In this document: positions 1-20,000 of the stretch, piece after piece
Layout: each line of letters begins with the position of its first letter
Position numbering within the stretch: position 1 is the stretch's first letter
DNA from: Atractiella rhizophila
Taxonomy: Eukaryota
Direction of reading: 5' to 3'
Assembly (NCBI GenBank): GCA_021432655.1
Contig: MU271446.1
Span: forward strand, 44,397-64,396
DNA length: 20,000 nt
Translations under genes and position numbers: made by a program
Notes under the pieces: model-generated
Seen by the model: only the letters and a program-made list of their open reading frames with translations
The model's database searches: none
Told to the model about the DNA's origin: nothing

Positions 1-1068
1 GCGATGGTCCACCTCACGGCATTGGCATGAAAGAGACGATGATACACACAATCCTGAGCGCCGGGATCACGACACCATTTGCAAGTGAGTCGAGCGGTCG
101 CCTAGCTCGACGGAAGACGGAGAAGTGTATTCAGAGCAGCTGCACTCAACAATCAGGGCTAGATGCAGATTGGACCAGGTGTCCTCGGCCAGATGGCGAG
201 CTGAGATTTTCTCGACCCGCTTACTACAGACATGCTTGTTCCAAACCCGCTCAGCACATACAACTTTGAGCTTCGACTGCGACGGTCGATGGTTTTCAGG
301 TGGCAATTCGAGCTTCCCGAGGGTAGGCAAGCGCCACACAAACCTCATCTTTCTACGTCGTGATTCGGAATATCTTTCTTGACGTGGAATGGGAGACAAG
401 CTCCACTTTGAAACAAGAAATGTCAACTTTGGGCAAATGGCGTGAGGAACATTGTATTGCCACGGTACAAAGGGAAGAAATGGAAGAGAGAAGGAAGCGG
501 GAGGCTAAAACGCGTCACAGAGTGATTCCTTTCTGCATGTGTGAAGAGTGGCACCACTCGCGCCATCCCACTGATCGCAATCCATCGATTGACGGACACA
601 TGCTTGGAGGAAGGACTGACCCTTTTCTATTCGCTAATCGCCAATCAAATATCCCGACATCCCCATCCATCCCCTCCTTCCCTGTTTCGAATATTATAAT
701 GCATAGCGCAGCTTCTCCACCCCGACCAGTAACACCAACGCCATTGAGAGTGACAAGACTATCCTGACCAAGTCCCGGGAGTGCCCATGAAGCACCTCTT
801 CCAAGGTCTGATGCACGTCGTCGTCTCGTTGTCGGCGAAAAGGCTGCGGGAAGCGGGGCCCCTCATGTTGAGCGTAAGTTTCGGTTTTGAGCAGATATAA
901 AAGGGCAGACGGTGGCATGCGGACCGCTTTTGGCTCTTCGGCCCTTTCTCCAGCCAGCAGCCTCGACCTGCCCACTCATCCAGACAGATTATTTTGGAGT
1001 CGAGATAACGATTCGTGCGCGTAATCTAAGTATATGCTGACAATATTTAATATTTAAGGAAGCAGAAG

Positions 1069-4000
1069 ATGAAGATTTATCCACCTGCGTCAGAGCCTTC
1101 GGTGTCACACCAGGCAGTCGAACCGCCTGGGACGGATCATGCACTCATCGCTGCTGCTGCGAAGAATGGGAACGGGAGTGGGAGCACGGAGGGTAGCACG
1201 AGCGGCGGGAATGGTACTGGAGAGAAGAACGAAAAGGGCGAAACGAAGACGGCGAAGAGGGGCAGCAGGGCATGTGCTGCTTGTAGGAAGGGAAAGAACC
1301 GGTACGTTTTACTTGCTTTCTTTCTCTTCTTTCCGTTTTTCATTCCATTACTTCTTTCATTCCTACGTTCTTGGTTATTTCCCTCTTTCCGATCCTGATT
1401 GCTTTCTTCCCTCTTTTCCACGTTTATTATTCGCGAAATTGTTTGCTTTTGCCGACTGGCCTTTCTCAAACTAATCTCCTTTTCTCGTGCTCATTCCTGT
1501 CTTTGCTTTTCTCCCTCCTGTTGCGATTATAATCATCTGCCTCCCTCGCCTTCTGATGGTGATCATCTTCCGTCATCCTTTCTCTTGCCCCGCCGCGCTT
1601 ATAATCTCCTCACGCAATACCCGACACTGTTGTGTTCTTGTGCTGTTACGGACTTGGCTGATCAAAGTTTGAATGCAGCTGCGAAGGATGGGAGAACCCT
1701 CCGTGAGTGAACCCGCCATTGGATGCGTAGCAAAAGCTCATGATTGTCACACTGCTTCCGATATAAAGCTGCAAGCGTTGCCGCACCACTTCCACCACCT
1801 GTTACTTCGAGAAGCCAGCCAAAGAACCGTCCTCGTTCGACGTCGCTTCACTCGAACGCATCTCCTCACTCGAGAACCAGATGACTCGCATGTCCTCCTC
1901 CCTCTCCGAACTCATCTCCATCTTCCGTCCTTCCCCTCCTCACCTTTCCAACCCCCAGCAACATCAACAGCAGCCACACCATCCGCAACAGCAACAACCT
2001 CAGATGTTACCCCAGCCTCCACCAGAAATGGCCTCGTACGAACCTTACGCCCCTTTCCCCCTCCCCTCCGTACGCAACTCCCTCCCTCCATACGCCGAGG
2101 ATCGCAGCCGTCTCTCCGGCGGGGTCAACGTGAACGGATTAGGCATCGGAGGGATGGGACTAGGATTGGGGATCGGGGTCCCTCAACAACACGCCCATCC
2201 TCATGGTCACAGTCACGGTGGACACCCTCAATGGTCTCCAGTGCCAGTGACGTCTGTTCCACTCCCTTCCCTCCCTGGCTCTTCCTCCCTTCCTCCGCTC
2301 CCTCTTCCAGTCCAAAACTCTGTCCCGACCTCCATTCCTCCTTCTGCCTCCTATGCCATCCTACCACCTCCCAACAGCTCCGCCGTCCCGCAAGCGGCGA
2401 GCATACCCCCTCCCGCTCCTCCTTCTTCCTCCGGCGGTACAAGGAAGGGCAGGAAGAGGAGTGCCTCTCAGACTGGCAGCGGGAACGGGCAGCCTGCGGC
2501 GCCACAAAAGAGGGCGAGGATAGCGGGAGAGGAGGATGGAGTGGCAGAGCCGACGGATGCAGCGGAGGGGAATAGGTTTCCTCGGTTGCCCAAGTATGCG
2601 AGTCCTAATCATGGTGCGTGGCCTTATTCTCGTTCCCCACCTGGAAGAAGGGGAAGTAGGTACTGATTTGGGGATGACTATGCATAGCTTTGGCTCACTA
2701 CGGATTGACCGCTCCTCCATCCCCCACCCTCTCGTGAGTCTCCCTCGTCCTAACTATTTCCCACAAGAAAGAGGCTGAAAGGCACTCAGTGACTCAGATC
2801 TACCCTCTTCCACGCTCACCGCTCCATTCGAAGCGCTAGCCACAGCGGCTGCAACTGCAGCCGAAGCCGAGGAGGTAGCATCAGCAGAATGCTCTCCAAC
2901 AGACGCGCGAGATCGAAGGGAGAGGAGGAAGGGAAAGGAGGGTGGGACGAAGGAGGGTGGAGGGAGTAGGACGAGGAGGACGGGGAGGAGGAGGGTCCCT
3001 CCGCCCCCGAATGCGTTTCCGGACGTCGTGCAGAAAGGAATGGTGGCTGAGGCGGAAGCGAGGGAATTGTTCGAGTTGTGAGTGTCTCCCAATCTGCCAT
3101 TCTTCCTTTCTCGGCTCGCATCGGCGACGGTCTTCCTCTACGCGTCTAGTAGTGATGGCTGATGTAATGCTGGAACAGCTATATGGCTTATTGCCATGCT
3201 TTCATTCCCCTCCTCGATCCTACCTACGACACCTATGCCGAATTCAAGGGACGCACCCAGTTCTGTTTCGACGCAGTCCTTAGCGTCGCCGCCAGGGTTA
3301 AATACACGCAAGGGAGTGCGTGCCACCTTCTATCCAGCGTTTATAAGAGGGAGAGAGAACTGATGGATGGAACAGCTACGAGCTTAGAAGTCCTCAGGGC
3401 GACGAGCGAAGAGGCACATGGCATAGCGAGGAGCACACTCTTTGCAGCCACCGTCAGGATCGAGGCTGTACAGGCTGGTTTGTCGTCCTTTCTACTACCG
3501 GTGGAGGAAGAAATTTGCTGATTGTTTATATGGCTGCATGTAGTCACCATCCTCGCTGCGTGGAGTGACAAGGGATACCTTGCTAGTGGACTCGCCTCTA
3601 GGATGGCCCTCGAGATGGTTCGTTTCTTCGGCTCCATATATTCATTCATGATATCGACGTTTTGTGAATTCAGGGCTTGAATCGGGCTCTTGAGAAGCTG
3701 GAAGACGGATCGAAAGAGCGTACGGAGGCAGAAGGACGAGATCTAGTCGTCAGCGCGAGGACTTGGTTGAGTGTTTACTACCTCGACTACGTGTTCGTAC
3801 CCTCGCCTTCTTCAATGTTAGGACGATCTAAATGATGACGGGTGCACTCCAGCATGTCTGTAGGAAATGGTCGCCCAGTCCTTCTCTCCCCCACCCACAT
3901 TCCGACCCGTGCCTTCCTTAGCTCTCCGTATGCGACAAAGACAGACATCAAGCTCGTGGCCGATATCGAGCTCTTGTCTCACAAGAGTAGGATAGGCGAG

Positions 4001-5051
4001 TCGATCGCGAGCTTTGGAGGGGCGGTGGATGAAAGGACACTCGGGTTTGTGAGGAGGGCTAGGGGAGATTTGGAGGGCTGGTTCGCGAGTTGGGATGGAG
4101 AGCTTTGTTCGTCTTTTCCTCCTTCACCATTCTCTGAGAACTAGACTCATACTTATGTTCGCTTAGCGAAACACTTTGCGGACGACAGCTTTGAGAGATT
4201 GAGCTTGAAGTTTAATTTACATCAGGCTATCATCTACCTTTGCTGTACTGGTCCGTCGAGTTTCTTTTCTACCCAGTTAAGTCGGTGTTAAGTTGGAAAT
4301 TGGTACAGCATTGCAAGGAAGAGGGACTTCAATTGATTCTCCACATCCCATCGAAGTCCGAGAACTCGCCCTTGAAGCAAGACTGTCCGCCCTCCAATCC
4401 CTTCACATCCTCCTCCACACTCCCTACCGTTCCTTCCTCAAGTACGGCACGCACAACACATTCGTGGAAAGTGCCTTCTCCGCCCTCTTTCTTCTCAAGA
4501 TGTCCAAGCTCTTCCCAGATGGTACCGACGTGGACCTCGCGCGAGAAGTGCGAGAGGTGGACTTGTTGGCCGAGGAACTGAAAGCTTGTCCTGGTGCTCA
4601 GCGGTTCGCTTGGACGCTCAAGATCGCCACAAGGAGGTGGAAGGAGGAGATGAACCTTGCCTCCTCTTCCTTCCTCATCAACGATCCGTCACCTCTGCCC
4701 CCTCCCACAACTTCTCAATATCAAGCGATCGACTGGCAGCAGCATCAACAGCAACAAGGACAACAACAGGGGCAAGCTGCTGAAAGTCCAACCGACAGTT
4801 TAGAGATCTACAACCTGCTCTCATCCATCCTTGGACAAGACAACGGGGCGACCTCCGCCAACGGAACTAACTCGAACGGAATATACAATCCCACGCAGAT
4901 GCAATCTCTACCTGGATGGATGACACAGCAGGACACGGCTTTCGATTTCGGAGATCTCGCGTTCCCGGCGATGGGACTCGATAGCATGTTCCTCCCCAGT
5001 TGGTTCGGGGCCCAATGGGTGGCAGGAGAGGAAGAAGGTCAGGCTTGGTAG
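1069..5051 (+). CDS. Zn2Cys6 (GAL4-type) fungal transcription factor with middle homology region, priB-like; 12 exons, ~982 aa
   Basis: Spliced cluster CAACRKGKNRCEGWENPPCKRCRTTSTTC fits C-x2-C-x6-C-x7-C-x2-C-x6-C. Exons deduced from GT..AG sites: 1069-1301, 1679-1702, 1769-2613, 2688-2733, 2790-3077, 3179-3315, 3376-3477, 3544-3617, 3674-3792, 3853-4106, 4167-4250, 4309-5051. They total 2949 nt and keep one frame. Middle-region motifs FIPLLDPTYDT, EAVQAVTILAAWSDKG and RTWLSVYYLDYVMSVGNGRP recall basidiomycete PriB-type factors. Confidence 0.93.
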
Positions 5052-5981
5052 CTTCGGCGTCATCTGGTTAGCTTCGTATACTCTTCTTGGATTTGAACGT
5101 TTCGCGTTCGTGGAATGATTCGACGCTTCTTTCTTTGGTATCATTGGTGCTTGATTTGGGTCAAAATGTAAATTACATGCTGATACCATTGTCTGAGCCT
5201 TGAAAGGGGGTTCAGGTTATCCCATACCACAAAAGCTAATGTTGCCCAATGGCGATGATGGGTCTGGGACAATGCCTGGGTCACGTGGCACGAAAGCTTT
5301 TTCCCTTTGTTCCTTGACCAACCCTCTATATAAACCCATACCAGTGAAAACCACCTTTGTTAGTGGAGGGCCCAGTTTCCAGATCATCTAAGGCAGATCA
5401 TTATCCTCCAAGGTAAGCCCAAACTCAGTATCTTAGCTCAGGTTGAGCTTTACTCTTGGTGTGTAGTCTCCTTGCATGGGGTGGCGTCCTCGACTCCAAC
5501 AAGTTTCTCGCCTTTCGGCGCTCATTATTTCTGCAGGTTGCTTGTGTCCATCCGTTCTTTTGACACATCCTAGCAGTGCCTCAGCTTACAAGTTGTGCTA
5601 TTCAGAGCCGTTGTTGATATCGTCCGACCTTCAAAGTGGAAATGGCAGTCAATACGGCAATTGTAGTGTAAGCATGAGGACAAATGAATAGCGTCCAAGA
5701 GCTAGGCGTGCGATTCCAATCCACCTTATCGCAGGACCCTCTTTTCCTGTCAATGATAATGTTACTAGCCTCTTCGTGCTGTCGTCAAGCACATGGGCAT
5801 AACAAGCCTCCTAAATAATCATCCCGCCTGCTTTCATTTCCTGCTGGTGCCTTGTTACCTTGGTGAGATTGTGAACCCCTTTGCCCCAAGTTTATTTTGC
5901 AAATAATTGTACTCACTGTGGCTAATCGAAGTAGGACCACTGGCCAAACGACTATTGTTCGAGTTTGCGGCTACCGTTAGA

Positions 5982-6736
5982 ATGAATCGCATTCGCGTCA
6001 GCTCTTTCATGATGTTGGAGGGTCAGCCTAATCACCGCTATAGGCAGAGTATCAGCGATTACTTTATGTCATTAGATACTCCAAGCATTTCGCTCTATCC
6101 ACTTATATCCGCCTCAAGCACACGTATAAGAACGAGAAGCACTGTTTCTGGGAACAACTCTGGTATCTGTTCTGGCCGATGCCCTGGTTCCATTCGATCC
6201 CTGCCCCTTATCCTCCTCTACAACTGCATGAAGAGGGAATCAAACTGATAGAACCCCGAATTCTGATGATTGAACGGTCGCGACACATCCCACTTTGGAA
6301 AGTTCGAGATACGCCTCTCGCTGCACTTTATAGACTCTACGAATATTCTTGCAGCCATGCTATTTGCTTCGTCCACGAGGTAACTTATATCTGGTATCGC
6401 TCCGATGGGCCAACCTACGATTTTCCGGATCCAAAAGATCCCGACCCTGTGCGATATGCTATTCTAGCCTGCTTGGTCGAGTCTATGGTTTACGCCTTCA
6501 ACTGGAGAATTGAAGAGCATGGATTCCGACGCGACAAACATGAAATTCTGTATCTTGGCCGAAATCCGCTTCCCCTGACTTTGGAGCGCGTACCTGAATG
6601 GTGCGGGAAAGTGCCACCATCTCCTATTGAGGTCGACATCCACAGGGAACCAAGTTCCGAAACGCGGAGAGGAGCCAAGATGCTGCAGAGGAAGAATATA
6701 ATTCACGAAGGATTTGCAGCGATGTTCTTTGTTTAA
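5982..6736 (+). CDS. Hypothetical protein (~235 aa), putative partner/antitoxin of the adjacent nucleotidyltransferase
   Basis: ATG at 5982, a 47-nt intron 5997-6043 (GTCAGC donor, CTAAT branch, TAG acceptor), then an open frame 6044-6736. Motif-like segments: LWYLFWPMPW, RDTPLAALYRLYE, PDPKDPDPVRYAILACLVESMVYAFNWR, VPEWCGKVPP, RKNII. The CDS is well supported; the function is inferred. Confidence 0.8.
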
Positions 6737-6792
6737 CATAGAATGAGATTGCGTATTACAAGCCGAAGGACATGAGGAACATTCTGCCGACT

Positions 6793-7505
6793 TCACAATA
6801 TGATTGTCCTCTTTTGATTCTCGTTGATGTATCCAATAGCCTTAGGCCAATGCTTTGAACTACGCCTGAGAAAGGGCCATCTCTCTAATATTTTGCCTTG
6901 GGAAGTCGTCTCCCCACTCTGTCGCGTCAGAAGGTCAGAAATTGCGATCGCGTCAGCAATGTCTTCTGCGCGAGGGGGACCAGCTACGCCTAGGTCGTCT
7001 AGATGAACATTGTTGCCGATCCGTCCCAGCTTCATCCCCAGTTGGAGGTGCCAATCGGTAGCAAAAATCTTGAGAACTTCACTTTCATAAACCACCAGCC
7101 GCTGGCGATAGCGGCACGTAGAACCTCATCGTTGAGAGTACCACCAATAAATGTGTTTACGTCGTTGTTGAGCCAGTCATCAGGAATGTTAAAAACCTTG
7201 CCGATAGCTTCGATGTGTAATTGCATAGCGCCTTGTACACTGGTTGGAAGGTCAAAAATGGCATCAATGTCCTTCGTGTTGGAGCGATTTTCAAGGTGCT
7301 TCATGGCGACGTAACCACCAAAAGCAACAGCTTGAATAGGAAATTTCACATTCAGGAATTCCGTACCGTTGAGCACTCTTGCAGATAGTTCGTCGAGAGC
7401 TAAGCAGAAGCGAACAAGCAAGTTAGAGAGAATTGTCTTGTCCCCACATGGACAATATGCACCTACCTCGGTCGGCAAGCTCAAGATCTAGAAAACCGTA
7501 CCCAT
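6793..7505 (-). pseudogene. Pol-beta-superfamily nucleotidyltransferase (AbiEii/MenT/DUF6036-like), ~215 aa when restored; two -1 frameshifts (pseudogene or assembly error)
   Basis: Motifs LDLELADRALDELS, AFGGYVAMKHLENRSNTKDIDAIF (GG at 7319, DxD at 7271-7263), DWLNND, IFATDWHLQLGMKLGR and RAEDIADA. A 67-nt intron spans 7466-7400 (GTAGGT, CTAAC, TTAG). Adding one G after the ATG at 7505 and one C at ~7105 gives a single 216-codon frame. Confidence 0.8.
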
Positions 7506-7569
7506 TTAGATTTCTAGTTGCGCTTAATAGACGTGTGGTGCTTTGTACCAGCTGGCTCTCAATCAAACA

Positions 7570-7577
7570 TTTATATA
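7570..7577 (-). promoter_or_regulatory. Putative TATA box of the nucleotidyltransferase gene
   Basis: TATATAAA on the minus strand, about 65 nt upstream of the ATG at 7505. Confidence 0.35.
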
Positions 7578-9534
7578 CGAGCAGCTGTCCTTGTACCAAA
7601 GCAGAACAAATGTAACAAGATAAGGAAAGGGTTTTCTCTTGTGAAGGAATGTGGCTTATCTTGTTCTTTACGCGTTTACTCCATCTCTTCCTTTCATACG
7701 TAGCAGCCCTTTGTACTCTGTAACCCCCCTCCCAGTGGCTCAGCAATAGGGTGTATGTCCCTCCTCAACTATCTGCTCTTTTGAGCTGTATCGGCTAGGA
7801 GAGTCTTCACGGCTCTTATACTCGAAAACCTAACTTGAACAAGTAAGAAGCGATGATTGTCAACAACTCCTTTGAACTTGCCTTCCAAAGTTAGTCTGTC
7901 ATGCCACTTCCCCAGCGATAGGAGTGGTGGAAGACAATCCTTTTGATCGATTCAAGTCGAGATTAGTGCATGTAGACCACTTCACTTTGCCTTCTTTTTC
8001 ATCCAGTATCAACATGGTACCCTTTAACATCTTCATTTTCGAAAACAGATAAACAGATAATGAACATTATGTCAGATAACTTCGCGGAGAAGGTGACCAA
8101 CTTCCATTCCATCCACTGCAGAAGGACGTGACCTACGTGGTGTGGCACCAGTGCCTTCGTGATTCGCCAACCGAAACCGAAGGTCGGTGGCAGAAGTAGG
8201 TGATTTGTTTCTCTTTCTTAAAACACCGATATTGGTGCGCATATCAGAAATTGTGGTGTCTCAATCGATCTTTTGACTTGATTATTGATATATCAACAGC
8301 AACAGTGGCACCCGGGTGCGTTTTATCTGCAAGCTGTAACCTCGTACTGCACCAGTTTCCATCTTCAGGGTTAGTGGGGTACTATCGTTTGTTCATGAAC
8401 ATTCCCTTTGACACCACTACTCATTCCATTTCATTTTTGAGCTAGCCTTCTGCTTGCTGCACATGCTAAAGTATCGAAATCCTCTGCGTCCATGAGTCAG
8501 CCCATCGACCGATGAGCCAACTTCTCAAACTTTTACGATGTGTTATATCATCCTTCAGGACTCTGCCTAGACGAGGACTCGGAGCTCTACACTTTGGATA
8601 TTTTGCTGGAACACTTTTCCTGTCCTTCTCTTTGAGAACTGATAAGAGAGGAGAGCTTACCATATTTGCATTGCACTACTGTATTTGCACCACGTGTGGG
8701 ACAGTACCCACCAATGGGACAGATTGAAAATCCATCTCTAACTTAGACAACCGACTTCCAATTTCCTTCAAACTTTGCAATAACATTCTCATCAATCTTG
8801 TCTACACTTGTACCAAGCATCTAAGCTGTTGCAGCTCTTTTGAAGCAGTAGGAAGGGTAAACGTGAAGAGCGGTTCTGTGAGGGACAATTTTCTGTGTAA
8901 AGTCCGACAGAACAAAGTTTGGCTGTCGGAGTTTGCCCCACCCCTGCCAAATCCCGCCTTTTACGTACTCCGTCAACTTGTCCCATTGGTGGGCCAAAGA
9001 GGTATCCTCTTTGGAGGTGAATATTTATAAGAGTATTGATCTTATTCACTCCTTTCCACGCAAAAATCAAAGATAAGATACATGTGTTTCGGCATGTCCC
9101 TGCTTGAATGAAGAGAGCTGCTTCTCTCTGCCAAATTCAGAGTTGAAAAAAGGGTGTCAAGTTTTGTCCCATTAGTGGTGCGAATATAGTAGTACCTCCA
9201 CCGAGTTTCATACGCCTCACCCTGCATCATTTTGTACCCACAGGTGACCTAAAGATGCTGAAGACTTAGTGAGAAATGTACTTTCTACCACCTTGCACTA
9301 ACAATCCCCAATCAATTATTAGTGAGTGCAAATGGTATAAACGAATATGTGATTGGGGAAAAAGAAAAGGAAAGAAAACACATCAAATACTTATAAGTCC
9401 GGACTAGCGGTGAAGTGCACATGTTTGGCACGGCATTCGGAACGCAATGCAAATAGAACAAACAAGTGACATCCACGGATCTCCAACAGACTTCACGCTC
9501 CTCAATTATGAGCCTCCAAGATGTATGTACAAGC

Positions 9535-13102: not shown

Positions 13103-13330
13103 AAGTATAGAGAGTGGGATGATTGGGTTGCCTTATAAGCTTCACCTTCGTGAGAGCAAGTAACAACGCCATATGCATATGACGATGCCTCATGATGGAG
13201 AAATCAACGAATTTGGGACTTGCTGGTAACCCCGGCACAAGGACGAAGAATGAGTCGCGAACCATGTGAAGTGCAGTATGGGGAGTACGGAGGAGTGCGG
13301 TATCCAGGAGAAGAGAAGGGGATATTGTAC
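13103..13330 (+). pseudogene. Degenerate exon of an unidentified gene fused in frame to the BRF1 fragment
   Basis: After an acceptor-like TTTCTAG the frame reads KYREWDDWVAL*ASPS*EQVTTPYAYDDAS*WRNQRIWDLLVTP...EEKGILY. It has three stops and shows no likeness to Brf1 cyclin folds. Confidence 0.35.
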
Positions 13331-13941
13331 GTTGACGATCTGGACGATGAGGAGCTTGATGCGTTCATACTCGATGAAGAGGAATCCGAGGCGAAGGCGA
13401 GGGTGTGGATGGAGTTCAATCGGGATTATCTCGAGAAGTTAGCCGGTGTGTCTTGCTTTCCCGATCTCAGAATGAAGCTAATGCTGGGAAATGGGAAGAG
13501 AAACAGCGAGAAGAAGAAGAGGGCATCAATAAACCGAAGAGGAAACGAAAACCTGTCCGTTCCTTCTTCTGATTCACAGATGGTTCTGACAATTGCCCAT
13601 TGTAGCGCAAGAAAAAGCTCAAACCTGGCGATCCGGCTGCCGCTGGAACTCAACAAACTACAGCAGCCGAAGCAGCGACAGAAATGATGCGCAAAAAGTT
13701 CTCTCGAAAGATTAATTATGCAGCCATCGAAGGGATGCTCGATTCCAACAATGTAATCGCCGCGATCGAGAGGCAAAAGAAAGGGTCGACTGCTCCCCTG
13801 CCATCAGCTGCCGGAGAGGAGGAAGAGGAAGTCAATTATCAAGAACATGGTGCAATGCCAGTTGAGGAGGAAGCTATGGAAGCAGACGCAGGCGGTTGGG
13901 AGGAGGGTGTAGAGGAAGAGGGATTCGATGAATACGAGTAG
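13250..13941 (+). pseudogene. BRF1: 5'-truncated BRF1 (TFIIIB subunit), C-terminal TBP-binding region only, copy 1
   Basis: DDLDDEELDAFILDEEESEAKARVWMEFNRDYLEKL and AAEAATEMMRKKFSRKINYAAI match Brf1 homology blocks II/III. Introns 13446-13498 and 13555-13605 are retained. Homology starts near 13332, with no zinc ribbon or cyclin repeats upstream. An in-frame ATG at 13250 would give ~195 aa. Confidence 0.85.
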
Positions 13942-14209
13942 CAGTTGGAGGGGAGAGATCAATTCGTTTCGCCTTTCGAATCCTGCTGCCAGGTAACTAG
14001 TCTTTTATCGTCCTTAAATTCTTTCTTTGTTCCTTCGTATCAATCATACATTTGTATCTCGGCATACATCCTGAACGTTCTGTTTGAGCCATGTAGAGTA
14101 CAAATTCAATGCAGAAATTGCGAATCCTTGTAACTTGAACACACAAGCTATTCACTGCCAGATCGATATTGTCTTGTTGTTGTACCAATTGGTGCCTAGG
14201 TCAGTGATC

Positions 14210-15136
14210 TCACTGCAAGTTGACGAATAAGCCTCCATCTGGTTCGGGTAAGCATCCGCGAACTCGCGAAGAAAAAAGGACATGTACCGACAAGAAGTTG
14301 AGCACCAGTCTAATCATCCCTTCAGCACGAAGTAATTGAGCAGTAAATAATGAATACGCACGACATAACCGCTCAAATCGCTAGCGAGAAACACAGCAGG
14401 ACCAACGATGTCCTCTGGTTGGCCCAACCTTCCGAGTGGGATCCTACCTTCCATGTACTCTCTCTTCTTACTATCCTTCAAATCCTCCTCGTTGAGCTGA
14501 GTTCTACAAAGCTTATTGTTGATAAAACACCCAGCCTGGGGAATGATCAAGTACAAACCGGATAGTGCCTGGCAAAATGGCATTACACCTGATCCCATTT
14601 CCGCCTAACGCGCAAGCTGTGCTCTGCATCAAGCTAAGAATTCCCGCTTTAGTCGGCGTGTAATGTGTCTGCCCTGCTCCGCCCACGAGAGCCGAAATTG
14701 ACGAAATTCCAATAATGCTCCCTCCTTTCCCTTGCAAAGCCATTTGTTTCGCTGCAGCTTGCACAGCATAAAATGCTCCGTCAAGGTTCACACGAACTGT
14801 TTTCGAGTATAACTCGGCTGGCAAGTCGAGAAATTCGTGGAATGTACAGATCCCTGCATTGGAGACCATGACATCCAACCCACCGAACTTTTCCACCGCC
14901 TTCTCGACAAGGGTGATTGAGGTGACTGGTTCCGAAATGTCTCCAGGAACTGCGAGAAGGGAAGGTATTTGGGACTGTAAGGAAGACAAAGCTTCCTCCG
15001 ACGAGGGGATTGGAAGATAGTTGACACAGACATTTGCGCCATGCTGGGAGAATCCAATCGCCAGCGCTCGACCGATGCCTGTGAGACCACCTGTGATGAT
15101 TGCAGTTTTTCCAAGGAGTAGTTGAGGGATTGCCAT
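14210..15136 (-). CDS. LRA1: L-rhamnose 1-dehydrogenase (SDR family), 256 aa, copy 1
   Basis: TGGLTGIG, NAGICTFHEFL, HYTPTKAG (YxxxK) and the C-terminus LVDGGLFVNLQ* are typical of fungal LRA1/RHA1. Exons 15136-14559, 14503-14362, 14309-14288, 14238-14210 total 771 nt. Confidence 0.9.
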
Positions 15137-15256
15137 AGTTGCCCTCAAATCGATTAATCTGCGTGGAGATGAATCAGTCAGTGGACCAATTTTTGCAGAA
15201 ATAGGAGGCGACGTAAAGATGAGAGACGATATGAAAGCAGGCCTACCGTGTCCAAT

Positions 15257-16256
15257 CTAATAAATTCCAAGAGATGCAAGCTTTGGAGGATCGCTAAAGA
15301 GGAGCAATAGGTGTAAGCTGGTTGTGCTTGGGTGTGCAGCGGGCCGGAGCGCCGTCAAGCGTTGAAGGTGCCATCTGTAATGTGAGAAGAAATTTGTAGG
15401 AATAATCAGTCAAAACTGCCGGACAAAAGATCAAGGGTCAGGCACTGGAAAGAGTCCTGCGGCTAGCGCGGTGGTTGATTGGTGGTCCAAGAGTACAGAC
15501 GGTGCGGAATAGGTACTAGATAGGTTGAGGTAGAAATGGAAGTTTGGTTGAGTGCTTTCGACGTGCTTTGCGCGGTGACCAAAACGTGGCGGAAAGGGGC
15601 CGCTTGCTTCGAGCTTGAATTATAGTGAAAAGGCTTCGCATCCACCCTTCACCTTTTCCGCTCCTGACATGCCTGACAGGCACACGCTCAATAGAATTGC
15701 AGTCAACGTGTTTAAAAACACTGTAATACGCACTAACAGTGCCGAATAACCATTTGCCAATATGTTGCTTTGATTGAAACCAAGGTCCAGGAAAATCAGA
15801 TAATACCATAACTGGACGGAGCCTTTTCTCTCACTCTCTGCCTCCTTCATTTCGTCGAACATTAGGTTGATGTTGTAGTATTCGCTGAACCAGTTCCGGC
15901 TTCTTTCCACGCGTTGGAAGCCCGAAATCCTTCCCAGTGGTTCATGTCAAATTCATCGGTGGAAACTTATTATAAAGACTGACCATTGAGGCGGTCCTGC
16001 GATTTGAGATCGTATACTTGTTCCTGTTATTCAACTCTTTTTCCAATGCTCCCCAGGCCATATCCTCACCCTTACCCTCTTCCCCATGCCAAGTCCAATA
16101 AATGCCGCTATCATCCTTATCACCTCCAGGCACATCGTCATTTTGCCTTTTCTTCTTCTTTTCTAGCTCAACACCGCTCATTGTGTGTCCAGATTTCAGA
16201 TCATCTAAAGGAGTTGTTGTTGTTAGGTTATCTGGGAAAGTGGTGCGAGTAGGCAT
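15257..16256 (-). pseudogene. Degenerate SAP-domain gene
   Basis: Removing a 54-nt intron (15983-15930, GTCAGT..AAG) gives YTISNRRTASMDFGLPTRGKKPELVQRILQH, a SAP motif. A probable frameshift near 15865 follows, then a frame with stops at 15622, 15433 and 15412. Both ends are approximate. Confidence 0.55.
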
Positions 16257-17580: not shown

Positions 17581-17971
17581 TGCGAAGCGGCGATTGGTGT
17601 TATTTGGTCAAAATTTATGACCCCACTACGAGACCGCTAACTAAAAGAAGTGGGTTTTTCTAGGGCCTGACCCTTGATCTTTTGTCCGGCAGTTTTGACT
17701 GATTATTCCTACAAATTTCTTCTCACATTACAGATGGCACCTTCAACGCTTGACGGCGCTCCGGCCCGCTGCACACCCAAGCACAACCAGCTTACACCTA
17801 TTGCTCCTCTTTAGCGATCCTCCAAAGCTTGCATCTCTTGGAATTTATTAGATTGGACACGGTAGGCCTGCTTTCATATCGTCTCTCATCTTTACGTCGC
17901 CTCCTATTCCTGCAAAAATTGGTCCACTGACTGATTCATCTCCACGCAGATTAATCGATTTGAGGGCAACT

Positions 17972-18898
17972 ATGGCAATCCCTCAACTACTCCTTGGAAA
18001 AACTGCAATCATCACAGGTGGTCTCACAGGCATCGGTCGAGCGCTGGCGATTGGATTCTCCCAGCATGGCGCAAATGTCTGTGTCAACTATCTTCCAATC
18101 CCCTCGTCGGAGGAAGCTTTGTCTTCCTTACAGTCCCAAATACCTTCCCTTCTCGCAGTTCCTGGAGACATTTCGGAACCAGTCACCTCAATCACCCTTG
18201 TCGAGAAGGCGGTGGAAAAGTTCGGTGGGTTGGATGTCATGGTCTCCAATGCAGGGATCTGTACATTCCACGAATTTCTCGACTTGCCAGCCGAGTTATA
18301 CTCGAAAACAGTTCGTGTGAACCTTGACGGAGCATTTTATGCTGTGCAAGCTGCAGCGAAACAAATGGCTTTGCAAGGGAAAGGAGGGAGCATTATTGGA
18401 ATTTCGTCAATTTCGGCTCTCGTGGGCGGAGCAGGGCAGACACATTACACGCCGACTAAAGCGGGAATTCTTAGCTTGATGCAGAGCACAGCTTGCGCGT
18501 TAGGCGGAAATGGGATCAGGTGTAATGCCATTTTGCCAGGCACTATCCGGTTTGTACTTGATCATTCCCCAGGCTGGGTGTTTTATCAACAATAAGCTTT
18601 GTAGAACTCAGCTCAACGAGGAGGATTTGAAGGATAGTAAGAAGAGAGAGTACATGGAAGGTAGGATCCCACTCGGAAGGTTGGGCCAACCAGAGGACAT
18701 CGTTGGTCCTGCTGTGTTTCTCGCTAGCGATTTGAGCGGTTATGTCGTGCGTATTCATTATTTACTGCTCAATTACTTCGTGCTGAAGGGATGATTAGAC
18801 TGGTGCTCAACTTCTTGTCGGTACATGTCCTTTTTTCTTCGCGAGTTCGCGGATGCTTACCCGAACCAGATGGAGGCTTATTCGTCAACTTGCAGTGA
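17972..18898 (+). CDS. LRA1: L-rhamnose 1-dehydrogenase (SDR family), 256 aa, copy 2
   Basis: Exons 17972-18549, 18605-18746, 18799-18820, 18870-18898. Same motifs and translation as copy 1. Confidence 0.9.
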
Positions 18899-19166
18899 GA
18901 TCACTGACCTAGGCACCAATTGGTACAACAACAAGACAATATCGATCTGGCAGTGAATAGCTTGTGTGTTCAAGTTACAAGGATTCGCAATTTCTGCATT
19001 GAATTTGTACTCTACATGGCTCAAACAGAACGTTCAGGATGTATGCCGAGATACAAATGTATGATTGATACGAAGGAACAAAGAAAGAATTTAAGGACGA
19101 TAAAAGACTAGTTACCTGGCAGCAGGATTCGAAAGGCGAAACGAATTGATCTCTCCCCTCCAACTG

Positions 19167-19858
19167 CTACTCGTATTCATCGAATCCCTCTTCCTCTACA
19201 CCCTCCTCCCAACCGCCTGCGTCTGCTTCCATAGCTTCCTCCTCAACTGGCATTGCACCATGTTCTTGATAATTGACTTCCTCTTCCTCCTCTCCGGCAG
19301 CTGATGGCAGGGGAGCAGTCGACCCTTTCTTTTGCCTCTCGATCGCGGCGATTACATTGTTGGAATCGAGCATCCCTTCGATGGCTGCATAATTAATCTT
19401 TCGAGAGAACTTTTTGCGCATCATTTCTGTCGCTGCTTCGGCTGCTGTAGTTTGTTGAGTTCCAGCGGCAGCCGGATCGCCAGGTTTGAGCTTTTTCTTG
19501 CGCTACAATGGGCAACTGTCAGAACCATCTGTGAATCAGAAGAAGGAACGGACAGGTTTTCGTTTCCTCTTCGGTTTATTGATGCCCTCTTCTTCTTCTC
19601 GCTGTTTCTCTTCCCATTTCCCAGCATTAGCTTCATTCTGAGATCGGGAAAGCAAGACACACCGGCTAACTTCTCGAGATAATCCCGATTGAACTCCATC
19701 CACACCCTCGCCTTCGCCTCGGATTCCTCTTCATCGAGTATGAACGCATCAAGCTCCTCATCGTCCAGATCGTCAACGTACAATATCCCCTTCTCTTCTC
19801 CTGGATACCGCACTCCTCCGTACTCCCCATAATGCACTTCACATGGTTCGCGACTCAT
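19167..19858 (-). pseudogene. BRF1: 5'-truncated BRF1 C-terminal fragment, copy 2
   Basis: Mirror of 13250-13941. It differs by Q/H in the non-Brf1 leader (19832) and one intronic base (19516). Confidence 0.85.
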
Positions 19859-20000
19859 TCTTCGTCCTTGTGCCGGGGTTACCAGCAAGTCCCAAATTCG
19901 TTGATTTCTCCATCATGAGGCATCGTCATATGCATATGGCGTTGTTACTTGCTCTCACGAAGGTGAAGCTTATAAGGCAACCCAATCATCCCACTCTCTA

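Follow-up and report, generated by a model that had tools for sequence, protein, structure and literature searches.

A stretch of 20,000 nucleotides (nt) of the Atractiella rhizophila genome (NCBI GenBank assembly GCA_021432655.1, contig MU271446.1, positions 44,397 to 64,396 of the forward strand), hereafter the window, carries two small genes that converge between positions 5982 and 7505. The plus-strand gene encodes a protein that we call the partner; the minus-strand gene resembles nucleotidyltransferases (NTases). A preliminary description, drawn from the DNA letters alone, had proposed that the two form a toxin-antidote module of bacterial type.

Structure of the convergent gene pair

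The partner gene comprises a first exon at 5982–5996 on the plus strand (MNRIR), an intron of 47 nt with GT and AG borders at 5997–6043, and a second exon at 6044–6736. The ATG (5982–5984) and the 5' splice site were read from the sequence; the second exon, which ends with a TAA at 6734–6736, was delimited by its open reading frame (ORF) and by homology to relatives. The reading frame is intact and specifies 235 amino acids. A 900-nt contig from an RNA-type public run (X3) joins 5996 to 6044, omitting exactly the intron, and covers 6044–6878 (record 18), so that 6737–6878 is an untranslated 3' part of the transcript. The partner gene is therefore transcribed and spliced, and its transcript overlaps the 3' end of the gene on the other strand by 86 nt or more.

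The gene model is supported by a 235-amino-acid hypothetical protein of A. rhizophila (P0001) that is 93% identical to it. In public runs X1 and X2, the partner locus (5900–6750) occurred in two versions. One was near-identical to the window; the other was about 91% identical (26 differences in 292 nt), carried changes that match P0001 (for example C to A at 6045), and beyond 6750 was too diverged to align to the window. The organism therefore has a second copy or haplotype of this locus.

The NTase-like gene lies on the minus strand. Its TGA (6793–6795) is separated from the partner stop codon by a gap of 56 nt (6737–6792). A putative first exon at 7467–7505, with an ATG at 7505–7503, was read from the sequence, and a 67-nt intron at 7400–7466 (GTAGGT...TTAG) is predicted from phase and splice sites. 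The integrity of the remainder was assessed with a family hidden Markov model (HMM) built from 14 relatives without any sequence from the window. The frame open at 7035–7487 corresponded to profile positions 5–111 (E-value 1.9e-21), and the frame open at 6796–7125 to positions 111–173 (E 4.4e-10). As the two halves abut in the profile and differ in frame, a shift of 1 nt at about 7104–7106 divides exon 2 into an N-terminal frame (7105–7399) and a C-terminal frame (6793–7104); at the break, the codons GCC (7106–7104) and CAG (7104–7102) share one base. An intron was ruled out as the cause, because homologues align continuously through the site.

The N-terminal frame contains motif I (GG, 7319–7314) and motif II (N-R-x-x-T-x-D-I-D, ending in T-K-D-I-D, with D-I-D at 7271–7263), and the C-terminal frame contains motif III (K-L-G-R, 7032–7021) and motif IV (R-A-E-D-I-A-D, 6972–6952); a D-W-L-N stretch is also present. 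All catalytic motif residues have been kept, which indicates either that the decay is recent or that the one site is a sequencing error. The start of the gene probably bears a second lesion. The only ATG, at 7505, which presumably was the ancestral start, lies one base off the splicing frame and opens a frame closed by a TAG (7490–7488) after five codons; in exon 1, an ATG is missing from the frame that continues in phase into exon 2. Record 8 of run X1, possibly the source sample of the window, covers 7120–7600 without gaps and reproduces this 5' sequence. The site at 7104–7106 is bridged by no contig (record 15 of X2 ends at 7105 and record 8 of X1 starts at 7120). The two reading frames do break there in the assembled sequence, though a sequencing error at that single site is possible. 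No contig of X3 (RNA-type) or X4 lay over 6926–7600, and lack of contig cover is not evidence of silence. Since its NTase gene is a pseudogene, this locus is not an active toxin-antidote pair.

The coordinates bear out the convergent layout with 56 nt between the stops that the preliminary description had reported, and the HMM halves locate the frame that it had said would need restoring. Of the single introns that it placed near each 5' end, that of the plus gene is documented by the X3 contig and that of the minus gene is a prediction. Its NTase motifs are all present, with a spacing of GG-x12-T-x-D-I-D rather than x11.

The nucleotidyltransferase family

On their own, the NTase fragments of the window gave nothing usable in Pfam (E ≤ 1), PADLOC, NCBIfam or PDB sequences. 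A phmmer search with the N-terminal fragment against 1.84 billion proteins returned eight rows, of which two were dismissed as repetitive false matches and six were accepted as relatives (118–274 amino acids, E 2.6e-5 to 8e-4). By word index, the NTase fragment had no match of near length, and the family alignment retrieved only five proteins. A profile of 16 family rows (A5), which includes seven homologues found beside partner genes, matched AbiGII among PDB sequences (9hlo_B, E 3.1e-6) with both motif blocks aligned.

When the 16 rows were compared with Pfam, eight matched DUF7582 (PF24483; best E 4.9e-8), a family of fungal proteins of unknown function, two matched DUF2204, and one matched AbiEii (PF08843) at an E-value of 0.042, short of the threshold. 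The DUF7582 threshold of 27 bits was exceeded by relative P0062 (31.2 bits) and by the NTase of a metagenome locus, L002 (30.3 bits). The two window fragments matched neither family; the window gene is tentatively placed in DUF7582 by its homology to these relatives. As the PF08843 threshold was missed, we treat the family as a distant relative of AbiEii and not as a PF08843 member, and by these matches it appears better filed under DUF7582. In the ESM Atlas, the L002 homologue fell first among DUF7582 clusters, mostly from Ascomycota (score 0.98), and then among bacterial DUF6036/AbiEii clusters (0.95). A pattern-limited scan of prokaryotic genomes with a narrower alignment (A6) found no relative of the NTase, and distant relatives are possible. 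The full-text literature, a scope that leaves out subscription journals and supplements here and below, yielded no paper on DUF7582 or DUF6036. Fungal genome papers mention expansions of AbiEii domains, and give no function or partner in the portions available (PMC13468701, PMC13448219).

An AlphaFold2 model was made from relative P0058 rather than from the broken window protein (predicted local distance difference test, pLDDT, 77.9). In a VIA fold search, its top ten matches were all NTase folds (Z 8.2 to 5.0), with unrelated folds starting at 3.4. The best was the toxin MenT1 of Mycobacterium tuberculosis (8an4_A, Z 8.2 over 165 residues, root-mean-square deviation 4.0), and the others included TglT (MenT3, Rv1045; 6j7n_A, Z 7.5), ANT(2'') (7.4), Pb27 of Paracoccidioides brasiliensis (5uvd, Z 7.3 over 171 residues) and MenT4 (6y56_A, Z 7.0). 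Z-scores of 7–8 denote a common fold class and not a common function. Foldseek returned weak rows headed by Pb27 (E 0.07), and entries of MNT-HEPN systems stood low in both lists. Pb27 is, like the NTase family, fungal and of the same superfamily; unlike AbiGII, it gave no sequence-level match in PDB profile searches of the family.

The motifs can be compared with the four that Dy et al. defined for AbiEii, in so far as the accessible part of that paper describes them (PMC3985639). As in AbiE/AbiGII (DUF1814/PF08843), motif I has the form hGG, and motif II combines an Arg with a Thr two residues before D-h-D. The spacing of motifs I and II is longer than in classical Pol-beta enzymes (x14 in the fungal gene, x15 in AbiEii), motif III presents a Lys in a hydrophobic helix (K-L-x-R), and motif IV reads D-x-x-D. 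In 15 rows of A5, the motif II Arg was present in 15, the Thr in 14 and D-x-D in 13. The window copy has F-G-G-x14-D-I-D, in which N-R precedes the first Asp by five residues. It continues with M-K-L-G-R-I and R-A-E-D-I-A-D; their K, R, D and D residues show no variation in A6. A positive residue directly before the first motif IV Asp is not conserved in the family. Profile matches and the modelled fold together support placing the minus gene, as proposed, in the AbiEii/MenT-like Pol-beta NTase superfamily. Some homologues carry a C-terminal extension (L007, 3980–4480 on the minus strand; P0062, residues ~205–274) that is rich in Tyr, Ser and Thr and includes stretches such as W-S-E-W-(S/T)-W and Y-E-Y-E-Y.

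NTases of the AbiEii/MenT type are bacterial toxins that have been studied in depth. AbiEii, AbiGII and MenT attach nucleotides to the 3' ends of tRNAs and so block translation, and AbiEi, MenA1 and MenA3 trigger auto-phosphorylation of their toxins. The phospho-acceptors are T65 in AbiEii and T39 in MenT1, and antitoxin-induced auto-phosphorylation of T65 switches AbiEii off, according to the available part of a recent preprint (bioRxiv 10.64898/2026.01.19.700257). Judged by motif comparison, the conserved Thr of the fungal family appears to correspond in position to these two residues.

The partner family and its linkage to the nucleotidyltransferase

The partner has 56 relatives at E ≤ 1e-3, and every named one is fungal (Aspergillus, Penicillium, Onygenales, Helotiales, Mycena and Trichomonascus). 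Twelve residues are invariant in the family, including those in R-D-T, Y-R, P-D-P-x-D-x-D-P-x-R-Y-A and F-N-W-R, and the window copy carries them, its third stretch reading P-D-P-x-D-P-D-P-x-R-Y-A. An AlphaFold2 model of the partner is all-alpha (pLDDT 82.5, predicted template modelling score 0.82). No match was found in Pfam, NCBIfam or PADLOC, no cluster in the ESM Atlas at a score of 0.9 or higher, and no similar fold by Foldseek at E ≤ 0.001 or VIA at Z ≥ 5; the best VIA match (Z 4.9) was to helical-repeat proteins, within the noise for helical models. Known antitoxins, whether AbiEi/COG5340, COG4861, MenA or MazE-like, were absent among the 15 Foldseek and 50 VIA matches listed for the partner, which leaves distant kinship possible. 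A pattern scan that took one genome from each of 185,579 prokaryotic species, confirmed with tblastn, found no relative; being limited by the pattern, it could have passed over distant ones. By these comparisons the partner is a fungus-specific, apparently all-helical protein outside the described families.

These results did not uphold the suggested likeness of the partner to the products of genes that adjoin DUF6036 NTases in bacteria (no library match, no relative in the prokaryotic scan, named relatives all fungal), nor does the scan support a bacterial-type origin of the partner. Fold searches, of the kind put forward as a check, gave MenT/TglT for the NTase relative (VIA) and no match for the partner by either method. 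The linkage of homologues in other genomes, set beforehand as a test of the module, was found, as follows.

Linkage was examined in 39 metagenome loci that contain a partner homologue, with up to 10 kb on each side. When the six-frame ORFs of these loci (318 kb) were searched with the NTase-family HMM, an NTase gene lay directly downstream of the partner and on the opposite strand in 12 of the 39, and there was no other NTase match in the 318 kb. Six of the matches had E-values of 1e-52 to 1e-62; that of L038 was weak (E 0.003) and cut by the contig end, as were those of L005 and L019. In 29 loci, 900 nt or more of sequence followed downstream of the partner; nine of these had the NTase and 20 did not (8 of 24 had it when identical rows were collapsed). 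With the window counted, there were 13 pairs: the stops lay 33–144 nt apart in ten of them, 382 nt apart in L005, and 751 nt apart in both L007 and L008. When 96 partner rows were arranged in a tree, linked pairs fell into at least seven deep clades, among them that of the window, one inside named Penicillium proteins and one adjoining Helotiales proteins. From its place in this tree, the metagenome material is presumably fungal.

The two genes also diverged together. Partner identity and NTase identity were correlated (r 0.96), and only 1 of 5040 permutations gave a value as high. This analysis used the seven of the 12 linked loci with near-complete NTase ORFs; the NTase genes of L005, L019 and L038 are cut short, those of L016 and the window are broken, and L008 is identical to L007, so these were left out. 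The orientation and the short gap persist across pairs that have just 20–55% protein identity to one another. No flanking ORF was common to the linked loci, save in the near-identical L018 and L022, and the NTase–partner pair is therefore the only conserved unit. Between L018 and L022, both genes have been under purifying selection, with ratios of nonsynonymous to synonymous substitution rates (dN/dS) of 0.16 for the NTase and 0.40 for the partner.

Descent or chance could conceivably account for the proximity of the two genes without any shared function, given that the NTase is lacking in two-thirds of the partner loci with context and that adjacency alone is no proof of a joint role. This explanation is very improbable in the face of the constant orientation, the short gap in 10 of 13 pairs, the persistence of the pairing among such dissimilar proteins, the lack of any other common flank or of an NTase elsewhere in the 318 kb, and the tight correlation of the two divergences. 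The two genes lie side by side at a frequency far above chance, they co-diverge, and the distribution of the pair is patchy.

Several further features of the partner loci were recorded. The genes next to solo partners encode a 2-oxoglutarate (2OG)-Fe(II) oxygenase, a cytochrome P450, an NmrA protein and a metallophosphoesterase. In a divergent partner clade (eight loci, four distinct), the convergent downstream neighbour is the 2OG-Fe(II) oxygenase, not the NTase (L027, 1882–2658; L029, 3952–4740; L031, 749–1537; L034, 4338–5126; all minus strand), which may be plain synteny among closely related loci. In ascomycete-type partners (L002, 214–350, plus strand, and the family consensus), the first ~45 residues are very rich in Arg and lack any acidic residue (M-V-R-P-R-P-K-L-T-W-W-M-R-L-R-R-F-I-R-H...); in composition this segment resembles an organelle or nucleolar targeting segment, and the window copy is less extreme. 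The NTase gene of L016 (1752–2444, minus strand) has an in-frame stop at 2076–2078 with homologous residues on both sides. Its motif I is replaced by G-A-T-S-G-I-G-R-S-L-A, which has the look of a dehydrogenase dinucleotide-binding segment, and R-S-T-H-D-I-D is kept.

Elsewhere in the window, a multi-exon gene upstream of the partner (1051–5051, plus strand) has a Cys-rich stretch (C-A-A-C-R-K-G-K / C-K-R-C-R) and is reminiscent of fungal zinc-cluster regulators; three ORF pieces of it that were scanned had no Pfam match at E ≤ 0.001. An inverted repeat of 2344 nt has arms at 13108–15451 and 17657–20000, reported as 100% complementary and 2205 nt apart, the second of which ends at the end of the window. 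Each arm contains a short-chain dehydrogenase gene and an ORF for a Brf1-like TATA-binding-protein-binding domain, and the ORF translations differ at a few residues. The repeat may be genuine, as an inverted duplication, or an artefact of assembly fold-back. No convincing terminal repeats surround the gene pair in the window, L004 or L012.

A possible effector and controller, or enzyme and subunit

The NTase and its partner probably work together, because they are tightly linked in many distant fungi, and they are perhaps a poison and its antidote. An effector–controller module is favoured by three things together: the linkage, the co-divergence and the relationship of the NTase to toxins. We therefore lean, tentatively and at rather less than even chances, towards an NTase effector held in check by a fungus-specific partner, possibly as poison and antidote, with the effector recently lost in the window. 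In such a module, the NTase would be the harmful or effector component and the partner its cognate controller or antidote, restraining it by binding. One possible means is auto-phosphorylation, triggered by the partner, of the conserved Thr that stands two positions ahead of the catalytic D-x-D. Convergence with overlap at the 3' ends would keep the genes together and may add antisense control. In the window, the effector would have decayed recently with its catalytic motifs kept, and the partner would survive as an expressed orphan. For the fungal pair, toxicity, neutralization, the phosphorylation step and antisense control are inferred. A complex prediction for the intact L002 pair (ESMFold2, run without alignments) scored 0.00 with the partner fold uncertain and says nothing about binding.

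The direction of control is suggested by the asymmetry of decay. A broken NTase gene stands beside an intact partner both in the window and in L016, where the partner is intact over profile positions 29–242, and no linked locus has a broken partner. Together with the frequent solo partners, this is the pattern that a dispensable or harmful NTase with a harmless partner would be expected to leave. The opposite polarity is known from HepT/MntA systems, in which a minimal NTase is the antitoxin. By analogy with such HEPN-MNT pairs, the helical partner would be the harmful effector and the NTase would neutralize it by nucleotidylylation; the all-helical model and the invariant Arg, Asp and Asn residues of the partner are compatible with this. 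We consider the reversed arrangement quite unlikely, as the partner is intact and transcribed beside a broken NTase and stands without an NTase in 20 of the 29 loci that have room for one, where an unrestrained toxin would be harmful. The partner family also has no conserved R-x4-6-H, the motif of HEPN proteins, and no His in invariant or near-invariant columns (43 to 45 sequences), and no HEPN structure was among the 50 VIA matches listed, none of which reached Z 5.

Several observations weigh against an effector–controller module. In bacteria, the AbiE and MenAT genes are arranged as co-directional operons and do not converge. No known antitoxin or fold was found to resemble the partner. Linkage was counted from the partner side only, and the frequency of solo partners among loci with room means that the partner may have a job of its own. 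The catalytic D-x-D is altered in two linked NTases, to D-V-N in L012 and N-V-D in L018, and by their motifs these two are possibly pseudo-enzymes; the purifying selection on the L018 gene fits a non-catalytic or non-toxic role at least there. In addition, Pb27, another fungal member of the superfamily, is described in the available parts of the sources as an abundant antigen and not as a toxin (bioRxiv 10.64898/2026.01.19.700257; PMC12565617).

Much of this evidence would suit a non-toxic two-component enzyme system, in which the NTase nucleotidylates an RNA, a protein or a small molecule in normal or stress physiology, and the partner either serves it as a subunit for specificity, localization or regulation or catalyses another step of the pathway. 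Linkage would then reflect co-function, as in small fungal gene clusters, and linkage and co-divergence fit this explanation equally. The 12 invariant partner residues are mostly polar or charged (R, D, T, Y, R, D, R, N and others), as in an active site or a tight interface. Solo partners are numerous, some adjoin metabolic genes (the oxygenase, P450 and NmrA genes), and selection has preserved the NTase even in a copy with altered D-x-D. Set against this, the closest characterized NTase relatives are toxins, loss of the NTase with retention of the partner and the patchy distribution better fit a dispensable harmful gene, and there is no third conserved gene nearby. We regard the non-toxic pair as an unlikely explanation when taken by itself, yet one that is nearly as likely as the effector–controller module.

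Like AbiE and AbiGII, the fungal genes form a two-gene module. Unlike AbiE, they are convergent, have introns, do not form an operon and reside in a fungal host, and the partner, for which no prokaryotic relative was found, appears not to be a winged-helix protein of COG5340 or COG4861; it is likewise apparently unrelated to the MenA antitoxins. Fungal DUF1814 homologues have been stated, in the accessible part of the work of Dy et al., not to be linked to putative antitoxins (PMC3985639). A fungal pair of this kind was not described in the portions available of the full-text literature on fungal AbiEii and toxin-antitoxin NTases, in which no search was aimed at the partner.

A bolder version of the effector–controller module, which we rate as distinctly improbable, is that the pair represents the first chromosomal two-gene toxin-antidote system of AbiE/MenT type in eukaryotes. 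A tRNA-tailing NTase of bacterial type would be switched off by a fungal-invented antidote acting through the phospho-acceptor Thr, with a role in abortive mycovirus defence, allorecognition or selfish killer-rescue. If true, this would account for the patchiness of the pair, for antidotes without a toxin and for decayed toxin genes such as that of the window.

One subfamily of fungal NTases thus has a conserved, co-diverging and convergently overlapping partner gene that belongs to no recognized family or fold. The pair is a concrete candidate for a bacterial-style effector–controller module in fungi, of interest to the fields of toxin-antitoxin systems and fungal immunity, and it offers a first functional handle on two families, DUF7582 and that of the partner.

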